DNA from: a virus
IMG/VR virus record: IMGVR_UViG_3300032157_000004
Span: 17,874 to 81,873 of that record
DNA length: 64,000 bases
Reading direction: 5' to 3' (one strand)
The notes under the pieces were generated by a model. That model was not told the origin of the DNA, made no database searches, and worked only from the letters and a program-made list of their open reading frames with translations. Positions 9,584-19,022 of the stretch are shown here, one piece after another (the first letter of the stretch is position 1; the number at the start of each line of letters is the position of its first letter). Position numbers and translations under genes: made by a program.

Positions 9584-10990
9584 CTATTCGGAATAGTGTG
9601 TTGAATCATCGTCAGTCAGGTACAGAACTTCAACGTCTCTTTGAGTTGAAAGCGGTCGAAGTTTAGCTTCTTCCATGATTACCTGTTTGAGTTGAATCAA
9701 CTCAACACCATCGGAGTGCTGGACAGTAATCGTGTCAAAGCCAAAGTTCATTATGGGGTCGAATTCCAGCAGCATGACTGACTCTTTCACTTGTCGTTTC
9801 TCCTTCATATCAGGCTTGCGGTTGCGTGTCGAGTACAGCATCTTGGCGCGGATAGCACGAAAGCTATACCCGCGACCCAATCGGTTGACGACTTTGGCGA
9901 CGCCATTCAAGGCTTCCGTGACAGCATTGGTGACAGGATGATCAAAGTAAGCAAAGGCTTCGGCCTCCCAATTGGTGAGTGCAGTCATGAGATCACCGAA
10001 TGCCCAGGCCAGATCGTTGGCGCGGACTTCTGCGGCCCACTCTCGGTAGTGAATTATGGCGGTTTGTTTGTCTGTCTCTGTGTCCCACAGGTCGTAGATG
10101 GCTTCCTTGAGTTCGTAGGCAACCGCCAATTCAGGGAAGGTTTCCAACCAAGTAGCCAGCAGAATTGTCTTATTGGGTGGCAACTCAGACCGGCGACGAA
10201 AGAGCAGGAACCTATCGTGCATCAGGGTACGACGTTGCCGGTCGGTCAATCCCTCTCTGATACGCTTGCGAACCTTGTCAATGGCCTGGTTTGCCATTCT
10301 GACGACATGGAATTTGTCAATGACGATGATTGCCTGTGGAAGCACGGCCCTGACAGCATCTCGATAAGGTATCCACATATCCATTGCGACCAATTCAATT
10401 TGGTCACGGTTGGGCAGGGCCATAAGTCGCTTGGCTACCTCTGGCTTTTTTCGACCAGGCAGGATGTCAATGAGTGTGCGAGCCTCAACATTGGTCAGCA
10501 CGCAACGGGCATTGCCAAGAAGATGCAACTCGTCAATGCCCAACCATCGTGGCGTGTTGAACTGGATGGCTTGTTCCAAGTGGTCAACGTGCCGACCAAA
10601 AATGTTACGAATAGTGCCTTCATCTACCCCAATGTCGGCGGCCAGGCTGGTAAAGGTACGTTCCAATGCCTTTGTCTGTACCCATTTGACCAGTCGTTTT
10701 GCTGCTCTGTGGTGGTCATCCAGATCGTCAAGCTGCTCAAAGAATGTGCGCTGGCACTCAAGGCACTTCCACTTCTTGCGCTGCACCAACAGTCTGACTT
10801 TCTTGCCGTGGATGGGAAGATCGCGGAATGGTTGATGCTTCGTGCCGTAACGATGCAACTTTGGATGGATGACGCCACAAGACAAGCAAACCTCTGGCTG
10901 CACTGTGTACCGAGCCTTGATGATGTATTCGTCGTGGGCTTCTTCGACCTCGGTTACGTCCCACTTGGGGAGGTTGAGAATGTCAGTCAT
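9584..10990 (-). CDS. ISL3-family DDE transposase
   Basis: Zn finger CLSC...WKCLEC, GIDE, VAMDMWIPY, IDKFHVV, TNAVTEALN; stop codon falls inside the terminal IR. Confidence 0.93.
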   Translation of the reverse strand: MTDILNLPKWDVTEVEEAHDEYIIKARYTVQPEVCLSCGVIHPKLHRYGTKHQPFRDLPIHGKKVRLLVQRKKWKCLECQRTFFEQLDDLDDHHRAAKRLVKWVQTKALERTFTSLAADIGVDEGTIRNIFGRHVDHLEQAIQFNTPRWLGIDELHLLGNARCVLTNVEARTLIDILPGRKKPEVAKRLMALPNRDQIELVAMDMWIPYRDAVRAVLPQAIIVIDKFHVVRMANQAIDKVRKRIREGLTDRQRRTLMHDRFLLFRRRSELPPNKTILLATWLETFPELAVAYELKEAIYDLWDTETDKQTAIIHYREWAAEVRANDLAWAFGDLMTALTNWEAEAFAYFDHPVTNAVTEALNGVAKVVNRLGRGYSFRAIRAKMLYSTRNRKPDMKEKRQVKESVMLLEFDPIMNFGFDTITVQHSDGVELIQLKQVIMEEAKLRPLSTQRDVEVLYLTDDDSTHYSE

Positions 10991-13904: not shown

Positions 13905-15227
13905 TTACATTTCCCCAGCCTTTTCCATTTCGACAATATAACGGAACACCGACTCTGAGAAGCCGTCGATATGAATCCAGTCACCATAGCCAACGCCATT
14001 TTGGTAGCTGGCAACGTTGATCAGATAGCCCTTGACACCCTTCGGAACCGACAGGATGCCATCATGTGTCTGTTCGTCCGTGATGACGATGATACGGTCA
14101 TACTTGGTCTTGGCGTTGATCTCCTTGAGAGAATTAGCCAGATAAGTACCGCCTCTATTCGACTTTTCAATCGCATCACGCAGCGCAAAACCTCTACGTG
14201 GCGGCACAAGAACAGCCTTGTCAGCGAACGACCACACCTCTACATCATCGCACATTTCACGTCCGACCATTGCCACACCACAGGCAGCGTCGGTGCGTTC
14301 CATATCCGACTTGGCGGAGAGCGGCGCACGCATCGAACCGGACATATCGACCAGGATGACTGTCTTACCCGCCAGCTTCAACTCACCAGCCGCCTCGAAA
14401 AATTTTTCTTCCAAAGCTGGCTCCAACTGCGGCACTTCTCTAGCTGCGGCAATAAAGCGGAAAGGCAGAACACGATAGATGGACATATCGTGAATCGCTT
14501 GCATGATCGTGCCATTATGCACACCCGCCTGTTGCATGTTTCTTAAATTTCTAAGCAGCGCCAACGCTCCCAACTTCTTCTCAACCAGAAGGCGAGTCCA
14601 CTTGTTCAACTTGGACACGCCATCATTTCTGGATAACTCGACTTCCCAGGTGTCAGGAGTCGGCAACTCACCCTTAACTGCTTGACGCCACAACTCGGCT
14701 TGATCTGCATTATCAGGTTCAGGGCGCACGATACGAAACACGTCCTTCAAAGAAACAGACCCTTGACGGTCGTACTTGGCAAGCGCATAGGCGTCAAACT
14801 TACGCAAAGCCTGTGCCAGTCCATCACGAACACAGTGGGCGACAGGAACCTTACCCTCCGCCCAATACATCGCCATGAATTCCATCGGCTCGTCGGCACG
14901 TTGGATCACCTTCGCCAATGTGTCAGCCACATAGGGACGATGTGTTTCATGGCGTGCCATTTCACGAACCAGGAACAGCGGCGCATGGCGCAGCTTCATT
15001 TGCTCTCTGGCTTCGACAGCCATTGCCGCTACCTTCGCCGGAGCCACCAACGGTACACTGTTGGCAAGCCGCTTGGCAATTTCTTGACCATCTTCGTAGA
15101 ATGTCTTTTCCCACAGAAAGCAGGACATCAAAGACCGACGCAATTGTTGCTCGGCGTTGATGCGGTGCGCCTTCCCCCCTTCGTGAGTCAAGATTGGTGG
15201 TTGATTTGGCTTCACGTTTGTTTTCAT
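13905..15227 (-). CDS. rsr: Ro60/Rsr (TROVE + vWA) RNA-binding protein
   Basis: THEGG, LRR..MSCFLWE.TFYEDG, KLRHAPL, FDAYALAKY, PDTWEVELS, ALLRNLRNM, LPFRFIAA; vWA MIDAS DMSGSM and ITDEQ. Confidence 0.92.
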   Translation of the reverse strand: MKTNVKPNQPPILTHEGGKAHRINAEQQLRRSLMSCFLWEKTFYEDGQEIAKRLANSVPLVAPAKVAAMAVEAREQMKLRHAPLFLVREMARHETHRPYVADTLAKVIQRADEPMEFMAMYWAEGKVPVAHCVRDGLAQALRKFDAYALAKYDRQGSVSLKDVFRIVRPEPDNADQAELWRQAVKGELPTPDTWEVELSRNDGVSKLNKWTRLLVEKKLGALALLRNLRNMQQAGVHNGTIMQAIHDMSIYRVLPFRFIAAAREVPQLEPALEEKFFEAAGELKLAGKTVILVDMSGSMRAPLSAKSDMERTDAACGVAMVGREMCDDVEVWSFADKAVLVPPRRGFALRDAIEKSNRGGTYLANSLKEINAKTKYDRIIVITDEQTHDGILSVPKGVKGYLINVASYQNGVGYGDWIHIDGFSESVFRYIVEMEKAGEM

Positions 15228-15251: not shown

Positions 15252-15575
15252 TTAGCCGTAAATCAGCCCAGCTTTACCGCTGACTGTCATCACACGATTG
15301 CCATTGTACTGCTTGCCTTTACGCAAGTCGGGCCTACGTTTAGCCTTAGACAAGACCAGCACAGGCTCGTCGCCTCTCTGGTATGTTCTCGGCGTCAACT
15401 GTCTGTAGCCCTGACTGACAAGATAACGACCATAACAGGCGTTGGCTTCTTGTCCAGTTGAGTGAGTCTTGGGCAAGTGCAGAGAGCGCAAACCCTTATT
15501 GGTTGCGCTAAGAGCCTGTCGTGTCCCTGAACAATGATCAAAAGGTGTATGACACATAAATTTATCTTGGCTCAT
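15252..15575 (-). CDS. Basic Cys/His-containing hypothetical protein between the RNA cluster and Ro60
   Basis: RBS caggagagaaaaccATG at 15575; CHTPFDHC...H.....A..CY.RYL..QGY. Confidence 0.7.
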   Translation of the reverse strand: MSQDKFMCHTPFDHCSGTRQALSATNKGLRSLHLPKTHSTGQEANACYGRYLVSQGYRQLTPRTYQRGDEPVLVLSKAKRRPDLRKGKQYNGNRVMTVSGKAGLIYG

Positions 15576-15676
15576 GGTTTTCTCTCCTGACGTTTTCTCT
15601 AAAAAGTTAATCTCAGCCACACTCTACATTACCACGTACGGCTCAGTCAATCCCCAAATAGCTAAATCTTTCAAAA

Positions 15677-15766
15677 TTTGTTGAGGGAAGAAGCGGCTAG
15701 GGCTTGGTATCAAAGCGTGGTTAGACACTGATAGAGAAGTATCCCTAACCTACACCACTCAACAAA
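15677..15766 (-). ncRNA. Y-RNA-like structured RNA without a tRNA domain
   Basis: Closing stem UUUGUUGAG/CUCAACAAA; core UGGUGUAGG opposite CCGCUUCUUCC; inner helix UUAGGG/CCCUAG; same core as the 16775-17000 RNA; ~450 bp upstream of Ro60. Confidence 0.65.
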
Positions 15767-15868
15767 ATAATTTTCTGGAGAGAATGCCAGTGTTGGCGGC
15801 TGGCACTCTCCACGTTCGAGACAGACCTTACAGGAGTTCACCGATGATCCCCCGAAACATCGGCTAGG

Positions 15869-15940
15869 CTGCTACGGTAGGACTCGAACCTACATTTTTC
15901 CGGTTAACAGCCGGATGCCTTGCCAGTCGGCCACATAGCA
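15869..15940 (-). tRNA. tRNA-Asn(GTT)
   Basis: Acceptor TGCTATG/CGTAGCA, G73; anticodon arm TCCGG-CTGTTAA-CCGGA; T arm GTAGG-TTCGAGT-CCTAC; CCA not fully encoded (CCT). Confidence 0.88.
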
Positions 15941-16102
15941 GTAATGGGTAGGGAGATACTGATCAGGTATCCTTATCGGCTTCCCTACCGAACCGAGTCT
16001 GTATCCAGACACACTAGCTGACTGTCTCTCCATTTGGCCGGAGACACGTTGTATAGCCTCTGGCCTTTGACGCCGCCAGTGACGTAAACAGATCTGTTTA
16101 GG

Positions 16103-16178
16103 CGAGACTGATCAGATTTGAACTGACGATCTTCTGTTCGACAAACAGACGCATTGGCCCTGGCTATGCTACAGTCCC
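16103..16178 (-). tRNA. tRNA-Asp(GTC)
   Basis: Acceptor GGGACTG/CAGTCTC, G73; anticodon arm TCTGT-TTGTCGA-ACAGA; T arm GTCAG-TTCAAAT-CTGAT; followed by CCT. Confidence 0.88.
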
Positions 16179-16265
16179 GTAAAGAGGCTTTATAGCGGGC
16201 TGCAACCCTTGCCTCTTGCACTACACTTATCCGAAAACGCCCACTTTCTTAATGGAGGTGAAAAA

Positions 16266-16320
16266 CTCATCGGCTGTATCTTCGCGCTCCGACTTGATTA
16301 AAGTTGGAACAGCCGATGAG
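16266..16320 (-). other. Long hairpin directly 3' of tRNA-Pro (terminator-like or separate small RNA)
   Basis: 12-bp perfect stem ctcatcggctgt/acagccgatgag with an inner 8-bp hairpin, followed by TTTTT on the minus strand. Confidence 0.5.
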
Positions 16321-16321
16321 A

Positions 16322-16396
16322 TGGTCAAGGTGGCAGGAATCGAACCTGCGTGTACTTGCTCCCAAAGCAAGCGGGTGGCCTCTACCCTACACCCTG
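16322..16396 (-). tRNA. tRNA-Pro(TGG)
   Basis: Acceptor CAGGGTG/CACCTTG, A73, encoded CCA; anticodon arm CTTGC-TTTGGGA-GCAAG; T arm GCAGG-TTCGATT-CCTGC. Confidence 0.9.
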
Positions 16397-16578
16397 ATAA
16401 GCCTCGAAAGGGAGTTACCCTCTAACGATGTCGGGCATACAGCACCGTCTAGTCTTTCCTAGAAGCCAAGAAACACGTCGCTTAGTGAACGGATTAAAAA
16501 GTAAGCGTTGGTTTTCAGACCTCACTTTTTAATTAACGTAGCCGTACCTGCGGAATATTTTAGGCATATTCATACCAG

Positions 16579-16647
16579 TGGCGGGGGCCGGATTTGAACC
16601 TGCGACCACCCTCTTAACAGGAGAAGTAACCCTTATCTAACACCACC
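16579..16647 (-). ncRNA. tRNA-like RNA (Asn-type anticodon arm and T arm) whose 5' part is the Y-motif instead of a D arm
   Basis: GGTGGTG-TTAGATAAGGGTTAC-TTCTC CTGTTAA GAGGG-TGGTC-GCAGG TTCAAAT CCGGC-CCCCGCCA; no D stem. Confidence 0.6.
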
Positions 16648-16671
16648 GAACAATTCAGTTGTTAAAGTAAA

Positions 16672-16768
16672 CACCTTCGGATGGTGTCGAACCATCTACT
16701 CGGCTTGTCAGGCTTTGCGTATCCCCTCCCTCCAGAGCGACAAACTTCTGTCGAGAGCGACCGAAGAT
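16672..16768 (-). ncRNA. tRNA-like element: acceptor stem plus T arm with a non-canonical middle
   Basis: ATCTTCG/CGAAGGT 7-bp stem, G discriminator, T arm GATGG-TTCGACA-CCATC; inner hairpin CGACA/TGTCG; no canonical D or anticodon arm. Confidence 0.4.
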
Positions 16769-16774
16769 GATAAT

Positions 16775-17000
16775 ATCAGGGGAAGGAGGCGAAAACAGAT
16801 ATTTTCGGTGCTACCGTTACACTATCTCCGCAGACGCTTTAGAGAGTGGATGCCTTCTGTGTCCAGAAGGCACTCTAAAGCTGACTTCAAAAGTGTTAAT
16901 GCTTGCAACGGCCACTTTTGTAGTTTGGAGCGGAGAGTGGGACTCGAACCCACACTCGTCTTTTGGCATAAGAAGTAACTGTTTCCTATCACCACCTGAT
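16775..17000 (-). ncRNA. YrlA-like Y RNA containing a circularly permuted tRNA-Gly(GCC)
   Basis: Closing stem AUCAGG/CCUGAU; tRNA 3' part (anticodon arm to CCA, 16926-16974) precedes the 5' part (GCGGAGA plus D arm, 16807-16831); perfect 7-bp acceptor; promoter puts +1 at 17000. Confidence 0.8.
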
Positions 17001-17006
17001 GACATC

Positions 17007-17035
17007 ACTATAGCATGGCGTCGGCGGCTTGTCTA
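17007..17035 (-). promoter_or_regulatory. Sigma70-type promoter of the RNA-Ro60 operon
   Basis: TAGACA (17035-30), 17 bp, TATAGT (17012-07) with TGn; +1 predicted at 17000, the first base of the Y-RNA stem. Confidence 0.72.
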
Positions 17036-17057
17036 TCCCCAATAGGCTACATATTTT

Positions 17058-17246
17058 CAACAGATTTAGAAGAACGGCGGCGACTTCCATAGCCTAATGG
17101 CTAAATCTGTTAAACGCCCGCAACCCCGCAAGTAGTTAATACTATATTATTGCTATTGGGTAAGGGAAAATAGTATATATAGGCTCTATAGGTAATAGGG
17201 GAGGAGTGACTACTTGTTGTAGTGGTGCGTAAACAACAGATTTAGA
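17058..17246. repeat. Three copies of AACAGATTTAG (operator- or iteron-like)
   Basis: caacagatttaga at 17058-17070 and 17234-17246 (direct); ctaaatctgtt at 17101-17111 (inverted); AT-rich stretch between them. Confidence 0.5.
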
Positions 17247-17249
17247 CAA

Positions 17250-17780
17250 TCAGCCATTCTTAAAAAGCCGGATCACGCTTAAACGCGAACCCCAACCGTT
17301 GCCTAAACCCGATCCAAGAAGGTTCCAGTTTGTGCCAGCACTAGCCGCCATCAGTCGATAGCGGTAGTTGATGCCAACTCTGAGGATACAATTGGTGTGG
17401 ATAGATGTGGCGCTGCCTAAAGTCGAAGCTGCCGCTGCCATCGTGCCTGGAAGTTGTGCGAAAGTACCCGTTGCCGGATCTTCTTCTATGTAGCCGTAGC
17501 CTTGAGCATCTACGCCTGTCGTCGGGCTTGCCATGACTGTGTAGTTAAAAAAATAAATTCCGGCTTCCAAAATAGTTAAGATACTAGAAGCCAAAGAAAA
17601 AATTTCCGGCGCTGAGTTCTGACGAGTCGTAATGAGAGGAACAACGATGGCAGCAATATAGGCAGACCCAAAGAAGCCGGAGTCGTACCACTCTGCCGAC
17701 CAGTTGCGATCTTCTACGTCTAAGTGATCCGCCGATCCGATTTGCTGTGAATCGGTGTTTCTAAGTCCTACAGTGGGCAT
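17250..17780 (-). CDS. Tail-tip associated hypothetical protein
   Basis: Last gene of the virion operon; beta-rich composition. Confidence 0.55.
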   Translation of the reverse strand: MPTVGLRNTDSQQIGSADHLDVEDRNWSAEWYDSGFFGSAYIAAIVVPLITTRQNSAPEIFSLASSILTILEAGIYFFNYTVMASPTTGVDAQGYGYIEEDPATGTFAQLPGTMAAAASTLGSATSIHTNCILRVGINYRYRLMAASAGTNWNLLGSGLGNGWGSRLSVIRLFKNG

Positions 17781-17837: not shown

Positions 17838-19022
17838 TCACACTTCGGTTCCCCTAAGTCCAAGCCGTGCGCTACGCATGTCGTATTTAGAACTCATACC
17901 GCCAGAAAATTGCACAGCATAGGGTGTTCGCATGTCGAACTGTACCGATTCAATTCTGAGCATCCTGGGATCACGATGTAAGTCAGAAAAAACTGGCCCC
18001 AGCCCTGGTAAGAAGTCAGAAAAAAATATCCACTTGCCAGGTCGAATTCGCCAGGGAGAAACAATACTGCCACCAGAGTCGAGAATAAGTCTCCTGGGAT
18101 CGGCAATCTCGATGGTGTAGTCTACCTCACTCGACCCTGGCCCATAGACAGGCTTGCGATTTGAGTAGATGCCAAAGTAATGCCGGATGTTGTTAGCGTC
18201 ACCCATTGCCGTCACACCGCGAATGTGTTCGTTAGCAAGCTGGTCATCGTTCTCGTAGAGCGGCACAGCGGACGTATTTAAGGCGATCTCGCTGTGATCG
18301 CTAGATATCCAGCCTGAGTTAAGATGTGCGCTTAGAACAGCCTTAATGCGGTCGGAGATGGTTATTGTGCCTGTGCCTGGAGTCGTGTAGTTATAGGGAT
18401 AGGTCAATGTCCGATACCAGCCGACGCAGTTGATAGTCAAAGAAATTTCTTCGTTGGAAAAAGAAAAATTTGAAGAAATTTCTGGATGACCATGTTCGGT
18501 CAACCACATATCGACTAGCTGGTCAGAATTGGCGTCAGTCACGCCCGCCAAAGATAAAATTTTAAACCAGATACCCCAGTCGGATTGTGATGCTGTGTTG
18601 TTAACGGTCGGTGTTTTCTTGCGGACACCGATCTGAGGCGGATAAACCGATGTGTCCACACCGGAATAGATTGCAAAAACACGGTTGGAGATATCGGTCA
18701 CTGGCCCTAGTGTAAGGGAAAGTCCTGCCTGATTAACATTGATTGAATCAACAAAACCTTCCCACACCGAGTCTAAAAAATTATCATAGACGATGATAGG
18801 TCGAAACAGACCGTCCTGCACCCACTCGTCTAAAGATGCCTGGTTTTCCGACAAAGAAAAAGAAGCTGTGTCGAAACCGCCGAAAGCATTGATGGTGTGT
18901 CGCCAGTCCTGAACGGAAACGTCTAAATTTCCTCTCCAGTTGCCGCCTTTTGGCAGTCTCTCAAAGTAGGAAATCGTAAAATTTTGACTGGAAAAATTAC
19001 TGCCGATAGACGCCCCAAACAC
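17838..19022 (-). CDS. Minor tail (hub/baseplate-like) protein
   Basis: 394 aa, third gene after the tape measure; call is by position only. Confidence 0.55.
   Translation of the reverse strand: MFGASIGSNFSSQNFTISYFERLPKGGNWRGNLDVSVQDWRHTINAFGGFDTASFSLSENQASLDEWVQDGLFRPIIVYDNFLDSVWEGFVDSINVNQAGLSLTLGPVTDISNRVFAIYSGVDTSVYPPQIGVRKKTPTVNNTASQSDWGIWFKILSLAGVTDANSDQLVDMWLTEHGHPEISSNFSFSNEEISLTINCVGWYRTLTYPYNYTTPGTGTITISDRIKAVLSAHLNSGWISSDHSEIALNTSAVPLYENDDQLANEHIRGVTAMGDANNIRHYFGIYSNRKPVYGPGSSEVDYTIEIADPRRLILDSGGSIVSPWRIRPGKWIFFSDFLPGLGPVFSDLHRDPRMLRIESVQFDMRTPYAVQFSGGMSSKYDMRSARLGLRGTEV

Follow-up and report, generated by a model that had tools for sequence, protein, structure and literature searches.

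A repeated two-stranded RNA handle beside a phage Ro60 gene, probably a divergent version of the YrlA/YrlB handle

The 5' consensus of the YrlA-type Y RNAs is GNCGAAN0-1G (Chen et al. 2014; PMC4201824). The YrlA of Mycobacterium smegmatis is cleaved by RNase P and has CCA added, and YrlA RNAs with long acceptor stems occur in cyanobacteria (PMC4201824; bioRxiv 10.1101/312249). The closest described phage system is that of phiLo, whose Ro60 binds stem-bulge-stem Yrl RNAs, with CGAA point mutants 3-4 fold weaker; these RNAs, Yrl1 and Yrl2, were chosen for their CGAA motif and are located upstream of the Ro60 gene (PMC12135203). The same paper credits Chen et al. 2014 with Y RNA-like RNAs in mycobacteriophages, CcrColossus, and Bacillus phage G (PMC12135203). 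Here we describe three RNA elements with a repeated core in positions 17,874 to 81,873 of the IMG/VR virus record IMGVR_UViG_3300032157_000004 (a stretch of 64,000 nucleotides [nt], referred to as the window), where they precede rsr, a gene for a Ro60 ortholog. We consider it probable that the minus-strand region 17035-13905 is a phage operon and that the repeated core is an Rsr-binding handle, a divergent version of that in YrlA and YrlB.

The window is part of an 89,078-bp record rated complete by CheckV, from a phage whose probable source is a soil metagenome, and all relevant elements lie on its minus strand. The pattern UGGUG-N1-2-AGR-N5-6-GWUACUUC has exactly three minus-strand matches in the 64 kb (16972-16994, 16623-16645, and 15736-15757) and none in 100 dinucleotide-preserving shuffles, which bears out the sequence-only reading that three RNAs share a common 5' strand. 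The three cores are GGUGAUAGG, GGUGUUAGA, and GGUGUAGG, giving a window 5' motif of GGUG(A)UAG. None fits GNCGAAN0-1G, which that reading had given in its published form. The matches fall in the three RNA elements below, which lie 0.45-1.8 kb upstream of rsr on the same strand.

16775-17000, minus strand: RNA-1, YrlA-type Y RNA of 226 nt (sequence reading, fold z score, alignment with 19 tRNA-bearing relatives)
16578-16654, minus strand: copy 2, an orphan 5' handle with a tRNA-like body (ARAGORN call 'tRNA-Asn', comparison with the related locus L213)
15677-15766, minus strand: RNA-3, tRNA-less (YrlB-like) hairpin Y RNA of 90 nt (match to R1, our covariance model of the family, and fold z score)
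13905-15227, minus strand: rsr, coding for a 440-amino-acid (aa) Ro60 ortholog (Pfam TROVE and VWA_2, PHROG 850, structure match)

RNA-3 displays the fold in its simplest form. Its terminal helix, P1, pairs UUUGUUGAG (15766-15758) with CUCAACAAA (15685-15677) and is followed by a bulged U (15757) and by GG (15756-15755) paired with CC (15687-15686). An internal loop then places UGUA of the 5' strand (15754-15751) opposite GCUUCUU of the 3' strand (15694-15688), and beyond the closing pair G15750:C15695 a second helix, P2, is formed by GUUAGGG (15749-15743) and CCCUAGC (15702-15696). The strand opposite the core is thus CGCUUCUUCC (15695-15686). P2 leads into AUACUUC (15742-15736) and a 33-nt apical region. 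RNA-3 is more stable than shuffled sequence (z = -4.1) and is matched by R1 over the whole model length (55.7 bits, E = 3e-15); since it has only the YUAY signature, it is YrlB-like.

The same elements are found in RNA-1: P1 (AUCAGG, 17000-16995, with CCUGAU, 16780-16775), a bulged U (16994), GG (16993-16992) paired with CC (16782-16781), an internal loop in which UGAUA (16991-16987) faces GCCUCCUU (16790-16783), the closing pair G16986:C16791, and P2 (GAAACAG, 16985-16979, with CUGUUUU, 16798-16792). Here the opposite strand is CGCCUCCUUCC (16791-16781), and UUACUUC (16978-16972) follows P2; the fold z score is -5.8. Both RNAs fit the family module base for base, RNA-1 and its closest relatives with one extra nucleotide in each loop strand. 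The claims that two of the RNAs put the core opposite (C/U)CGCYUC(C)UUCC, and that their flanking helices differ in sequence yet keep pairing, are therefore confirmed in RNA-1 and RNA-3 by sequence reading, and the second extends across the family as covariation in P1 and P2.

That covariation was measured in a family alignment of 150 sequences (132 distinct rows). In P1 and P2 together, 93% of the cells are paired, with 736 double-change cells versus 231 after shuffling and compensatory changes in all 13 pairs of the two helices; the signal is lost when the partner strand is slid along. R1 was built on 18 short hairpins of the family, and its only pairs were those of P1 and P2; three further pairs, absent from the model, therefore provide an unbiased reading: G12:C170 (GC 121, AU 11, mismatches 0), G13:C169 (GC 130, AU 1, UA 1), and G20:C157 (GC 109, GU 11, UA 5, AU 2, CG 2). 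The base after AG, which the sequence-only reading had counted into the core as G or A, does occur in the pattern, but it is the outermost base of P2 and covaries with the base before CG (A:U 51, G:C 51, and U:A 15 of 132). A pairing of the core itself as GGYG:CGNN, by analogy with the GGCGA:UCGCC of the Rfam model, was rejected: it has 0 double changes, is no better than shuffles, and would involve C157, which pairs with G20. Mutual information among the loop positions Y14, H16, N162, N163, and R165 gave no signal above z = 3.

The module hence consists of P1, a bulged U, GG:CC, an internal loop, a G:C pair with P2, and (U/A/C)UACUUC. The internal loop is asymmetric, with Y-G-H-A on the 5' side (the G and final A invariant) against G-N-N-U-R-U-U on the 3' side. 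Across the family the 5' core reads GG-Y-G-(N)-H-A-G, and both UACUUC and GNNURUU-CC are near-invariant. P1 and P2 are free in sequence while their pairing is kept, and the loop and clamp are conserved in sequence; this combination of free helices with a near-invariant loop and clamp is the signature of a protein-binding site. As in Y RNAs, the two RNA ends pair into a stem with a conserved, partly unpaired putative Ro60 site, and a variable loop lies beyond it.

Beyond the handle, RNA-1 carries the arms of a tRNA in YrlA order, that is, T arm, closed acceptor stem-loop, and D arm, together with YUAY (UUAC after P2). An anticodon-like hairpin (16974-16958, loop AUGCCAA) is followed by the T arm (16953-16937, GUGGGUUCGAGUCCCAC) and by a 7-bp acceptor stem, UCUCCGC/GCGGAGA, whose 3' strand (16936-16930) precedes its 5' strand (16831-16825); the D arm lies at 16822-16808 (GUGUAACGGUAGCAC). 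The acceptor 3' strand is followed by U and then CCA (16928-16926), and a 94-nt insert of two hairpins (16925-16832) stands where the acceptor loop would be. A few other family members also have NCCA following the acceptor strand. The insert is kept in the L213 ortholog (Rsr 85% identical) and absent in the L214 ortholog (Rsr 70%), which has the same P1. The Rfam tRNA model gives a partial match of 22.8 bits at 16929-16995. RNA-1 and RNA-3 thus agree with the proposal of one tRNA-bearing and one tRNA-less member. In tRNA-bearing members generally (e.g., L001 3051, L007 4839, L059 7393, and window 16974-16958), the UUC of UACUUC opens a 5-bp stem with a 7-nt loop. This resembles an anticodon arm, with U at loop position 2 in 21/34 and A at position 7 in 25/34, and the 'anticodons' vary.

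By its matches, Rsr is a full-length Ro60. Pfam finds both its TROVE ring (TROVE, 2e-18) and its vWA domain (VWA_2), with vWA_Ro60 marginally below the Pfam cut-off (27.3 vs 27.7 bits). The protein also matches PHROG 850, 'RNA-binding protein', at 6e-44. The nearest solved structure is the Thermus phage phiLo Ro60 (9KOP/9L5Y; E = 5e-33 over residues 13-433), to which it is 26% identical.

A profile search with the Rsr clade found 518 viral stretches in IMG/VR that encode a relative, and Rsr relatives in IMG/VR have the same motif adjoining the gene. In 100 TROVE loci, a regular expression recovered 140 distinct 5' motifs in 70 loci, at 1-4 copies per locus; 124 of the 140 lie upstream of rsr, and modules also occur downstream of rsr and in tRNA-free loci. 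The sequence-only reading had proposed a covariance-model search near TROVE genes as a check. With R1 at E<=0.01, this yielded 216 matches in 99 rsr loci (768 kb), every one on the rsr strand and up to seven in one locus (L127), versus 3 matches in 861 kb from 100 other viral loci; L082 accounts for two of the three, beside a divergent vWA gene. The sole linkage evidence free of collection bias toward rsr comes from a blind scan of IMG/VR that used only the 5' motif. Its matches are mostly chance ones; the correctly spaced ones all adjoin a TROVE gene (L019, L021, L033, L039, L059, L063, L065, L106, L109, and L115) with the exception of L082. In L082 (3-1707, minus strand), two handle RNAs are followed by a 212-aa open reading frame (ORF) with no Pfam match and then by a separate 214-aa vWA ORF, and this pair may represent a highly divergent Ro60 or one that has been split.

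Cultured phages carry the module too. CcrColossus has five copies, one of them under an annotated 'tRNA-Gln', and Xanthomonas phage MET23-P3 has four inside an unannotated gap; the module is further present in Microcystis phage Mvi-JY20 and crAss001, with weak matches in Arthrobacter phage Atuin. In phiLo (MH673673.1, L210 4003-4070), R1 has one match (29.9 bits, E = 3e-7) with UACUUC and CG..UUCC, which begins 12 nt past the stop codon of Ro60, overlapping the first part of the annotated coding sequence phiLo_25. In bacterial contigs of 159-705 kb with housekeeping neighbours, the module precedes the same Rsr clade. Across phages and bacteria, rsr is the only gene that travels with the module.

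Comparison with the described Y RNAs places these RNAs close to YrlA and YrlB. They are likewise encoded within 4 kb of rsr on the same strand, with paired 5' and 3' ends, a conserved 5'-strand motif and then YUAY, and they likewise divide into an A type with a tRNA mimic (T arm, closed acceptor stem, and D arm) and a B type without it. The YUAY signature is kept in the family as (U/A/C)UAC. Of the 132 distinct cores, an exact GNCGAAN0-1G accounts for 21, and CGAA occurs in 23, the others being GGUGAAG, GGCGUAG, GGUGUAG, and similar; on these sequences, GNCGAAN0-1G reads as one allele of GGYG(N)HAG. The differences lie in the handle. In a canonical gammaproteobacterial YrlA, UGGCGA pairs with UCGCCA and the loop is different. 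Canonical YrlA has GGCGA:UCGCC with a 5x8 loop (AUNCU / AAnnCUUG), whereas the present family has a GG:CC clamp with a 4x7 loop, so that the CGA:UCG pairs are replaced by non-Watson-Crick juxtapositions. The family also has the extra terminal helix P1 outside the clamp, GGYG(N)HAG in place of GNCGAAN0-1G, the additional UACUUC and GNNURUU-CC, and arrays that reach the seven copies of L127. Because 21 of the 132 cores are GNCGAAN0-1G, YUAY is kept, and RNA-1 has the YrlA arm order, we regard the family as a divergent YrlA/YrlB branch, not an unrelated motif. The proposal of a distinct Y RNA subfamily with a new motif accordingly stands as far as the family is conserved, missed by Rfam, and linked to rsr, and is unsupported where it sets the motif apart from the YrlA consensus. 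Judged from sequence, YrlA and the present handle are distinct at the level of models and continuous at the level of sequences.

Relationships to other Y RNAs are looser. The likeness to phiLo lies in a phage-encoded Ro60 with gene-adjacent stem-bulge-stem RNAs that carry their motif in the 5' strand of the bulge, although the phiLo element found by R1 lies downstream of Ro60 and is not one of the published Yrl1 and Yrl2. Metazoan Y RNAs and Yrn1 of Deinococcus radiodurans are similarly modular, with a conserved, partly unpaired Ro60-binding stem that is recognized chiefly through its 5' strand and a variable effector loop; there is no match at the sequence level, and their bulged C and GGUCCGA:UUGACC helix are absent here. 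The candidate handle of Felix O1-type phages, ACAGCAAA, differs in sequence and belongs with a different, more distant clade of Ro60-like proteins.

Copy 2 departs from this pattern. Its 5' strand is complete (UUGUUCGG, U, GG, UGUUA, G, then AUAAGGG and UUACUUC). In the body that follows, an anticodon-like arm (loop CUGUUAA) comes before a T arm that has one mismatch, and CCCCGCC-A pairs back to GGUGGUG; no D arm or D stem can be drawn in the copy 2 sequence, nor is there a 3' core or a partner for P1. Since its Rfam tRNA score is 19.3 bits, below the 29-bit cut-off, copy 2 is not a normal tRNA despite the ARAGORN label, and it was not recovered by the R1 scan of the window. A 3' partner was sought and rejected: neither CCGAACAA nor a 3' core occurs downstream, and a partial CCCUUU-CG (~16405) lacks covariation when compared with L213_2431. 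In L213, the element L213_2431 is built like copy 2 and is followed by the same sequence, and a paralog that shares the P1 5' strand of copy 2, L213_1384, is a YrlA-type RNA in complete form, CGCCUUCUUCC then CCGAACAA. The build and the identical 190-nt downstream sequence that it shares with L213_2431 thus make copy 2 a conserved kind of handle/tRNA chimera. This segment of ~190 nt below copy 2 (window 16396-16590, minus strand; L213 2500-2680) is identical where the flanking DNA is 83-89% identical and Rsr 85%, and it could be a conserved RNA or a recently exchanged segment. Relative to L213 1438-2472, ~1 kb of the array is missing in the window, including three handle elements and a tRNA-Ile. 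The junction, at window ~16590-16600, falls in the T-arm region of two paralogs, a position that suggests the repeated Y RNA genes recombined.

Several handle RNAs have a tRNA annotation over their 5' part: CcrColossus L206 1628-1695 is 'tRNA-Gln' in GenBank, L213 1001-1069 is 'tRNA-Gly' by ARAGORN, and window 16578-16647 is the 'tRNA-Asn' of copy 2. Such labels are probably a systematic mis-annotation of Y RNAs in phage tRNA arrays.

The remaining features of the block are as follows.

17007-17035, minus strand: promoter-like site, TAGACA, a 17-nt spacer and a TG-extended TATAGT (10/12 consensus positions; consensus match only)
16322-16396, minus strand: tRNA-Pro (UGG) (ARAGORN; Rfam tRNA 56.3 bits)
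16101-16178, minus strand: tRNA-Asp (GUC) (ARAGORN; Rfam tRNA 59.9 bits)
15867-15940, minus strand: tRNA-Asn (GUU) (ARAGORN; Rfam tRNA 65 bits)
15252-15575, minus strand: small ORF of 107 aa between RNA-3 and rsr (ORF; DNA kept in L213)

In transcript order on the minus strand, the promoter-like site is followed by RNA-1, copy 2, tRNA-Pro, tRNA-Asp, tRNA-Asn, RNA-3, the 107-aa ORF, and rsr, and the -10 element of the putative promoter stops 6 nt ahead of base 1 of RNA-1. The 107-aa ORF has no match in Pfam or PHROG. Several relatives have a small ORF at the same spot before rsr, with proteins unrelated in sequence; neither that of L215 nor that of L232 resembles the window ORF. A role for it as a third ribonucleoprotein component was considered and rejected, as its conservation stops at the nearest relative. 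Downstream of rsr lie an SNF2 helicase gene and then an ISL3-family transposase gene (Pfam 4e-60; window 9584-10990), two genes past the helicase and inside the phage genome. L213, in contrast to the window, has an HNH gene immediately after rsr.

The reading of the repeated core as an Rsr-binding handle starts from observations, namely the sequences themselves, a fold established by covariation, the family's linkage to rsr, and how widely it is spread. By analogy with the complexes of Xenopus Ro60 with Y3, Deinococcus Rsr with Yrn1, and phiLo Ro60 with Yrl2, the handle would dock on the outer face of the Rsr ring, leaving the variable apical part as an effector-binding or gating module. In RNA-1, this part would mimic a circularly permuted tRNA, with the CCA encoded and 94 nt inserted in the acceptor, and in RNA-3 it would be a plain hairpin. 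The insert of RNA-1 may be excised by RNase P and 3' processing to leave a two-piece RNA, as in M. smegmatis YrlA; such a two-piece mature RNA-1 is plausible by analogy, given the RNase P cleavage and CCA addition in that YrlA.

Several points weigh against this reading. Transcription of the block, the ends and processing of the RNAs, their binding by Rsr, and any effector are inferred. The covariation in P1 and P2 leans toward structure, as the alignment was fitted to those helices, and the linkage count is biased because most loci were gathered through rsr. With only the 5' half of the handle, copy 2 cannot form the module. RNA-1 was not recovered in the R1 scan of the window, owing to its long insert and the extra base in each loop strand, and was assigned by sequence reading and alignment A5. 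Applied to a canonical gammaproteobacterial YrlA (69.4 bits by Rfam) and to other YrlA-like matches, R1 detected nothing, and the 69-bit gathering cut-off of RF02553 (YrlA) was reached by no member tested. The proposed homology of the handles rests on position, the 16% of cores identical to the published motif, and the common tRNA-like domain.

A rival view, which we hold to be unlikely, takes the core for a wholly new Ro60-binding motif that shares neither ancestry nor mechanism with the GNCGAA/CGAA handle of YrlA. As the sequence-only reading had suggested checking, the Rfam Y RNA families were compared and no Rfam model captures the core. RF02553 has no match at E<=10 in window 15500-17300 and none in the whole 89-kb genome, and an Rfam search of 15500-17300 at the same threshold returned only tRNA as significant, with no match to the Y_RNA families. 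Together with the failure of R1 on canonical YrlA, the absence of the published motif from 84% of the cores, the GG:CC and loop in place of GGCGA:UCGCC, and the position of GNNURUU-CC and UACUUC outside the published consensus, this would favor a separate origin. However, the cores grade into one another (GGCGAAG, GGUGAAG, GGCGUAG, and GGUGUAG) with position, architecture, and opposing 3' strand unchanged, and YUAY and the YrlA-type permuted tRNA domain are held in common. Tested on tRNA-bearing relatives, RF02553 stays below threshold at 30-53 bits, most of the score coming from the tRNA-like domain. The CcrColossus RNAs, moreover, were already counted as Y RNA-like by Chen et al. 2014, according to PMC12135203.

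It is less probable still that the handle is bound by a factor other than Rsr, such as a processing nuclease, the small ORF product, or a host tRNA enzyme, or that it serves mainly as a signal within the rsr-tRNA transcript, acting in cis or guiding its processing. Rsr binding by these RNAs is predicted, and either alternative would fit both the co-orientation of RNAs and tRNAs in one block upstream of rsr and the resemblance of the 5' strand to a tRNA 5' half, with GG..G, UAG at the place of U8-A9-G10, and an anticodon-like arm. It fits poorly with rsr as the sole companion of the module in phages and bacteria, a small ORF that is not conserved in L215 and L232, hairpin members free of tRNA features past the handle, and modules on both sides of rsr and in loci that lack tRNAs. 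Hardly credible, finally, is the idea that the elements are functionless, decaying tRNA-derived repeats or pseudogenes. The copy 2 chimera without a 3' strand, the tRNA labels that ARAGORN and GenBank give to several copies, and the ~1 kb absent relative to the L213 array might be taken for decay; nevertheless, the near-invariant loop bases and the compensated free helices persist across Rsr proteins of 26-85% identity, and conserved loops with compensating helices indicate selection rather than decay.

The Rsr-binding reading leaves the basic picture of Ro60-Y RNA biology unchanged. A bolder version of it, which we offer tentatively and think doubtful, is that in this large clade the Ro60 determinant is the two-stranded module and not CGAA, that the module is a fossil tRNA 5' half, and that Y RNAs of the clade arise repeatedly from tandem tRNA genes in phage arrays. 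The determinant would then comprise the GG:CC clamp, the invariant G and A of the 4-nt 5' loop, the 3' U-R-U-U, and UACUUC, and the fossil half an acceptor strand, UAG at positions 8-10, and an anticodon arm. If this were true, copy 2 and similar chimeras would be either surviving intermediates or members of a third functional class.

The CGAA/GNCGAA motif and the Rfam YrlA model, the usual routes in searches for Y RNAs, both miss this clade. It is a large one, comprising the 518 IMG/VR stretches, bacterial chromosomes, and cultured phages of Xanthomonas, Brevundimonas, Ralstonia, and Microcystis as well as CcrColossus and crAss001, and in cultured phages its RNAs bear either no annotation or a tRNA label. 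The commonest partners of phage Ro60 would be tRNA-less hairpin Y RNAs in arrays. The handle model provides a direct tool for finding them and points to the bases that may be mutated in binding assays.

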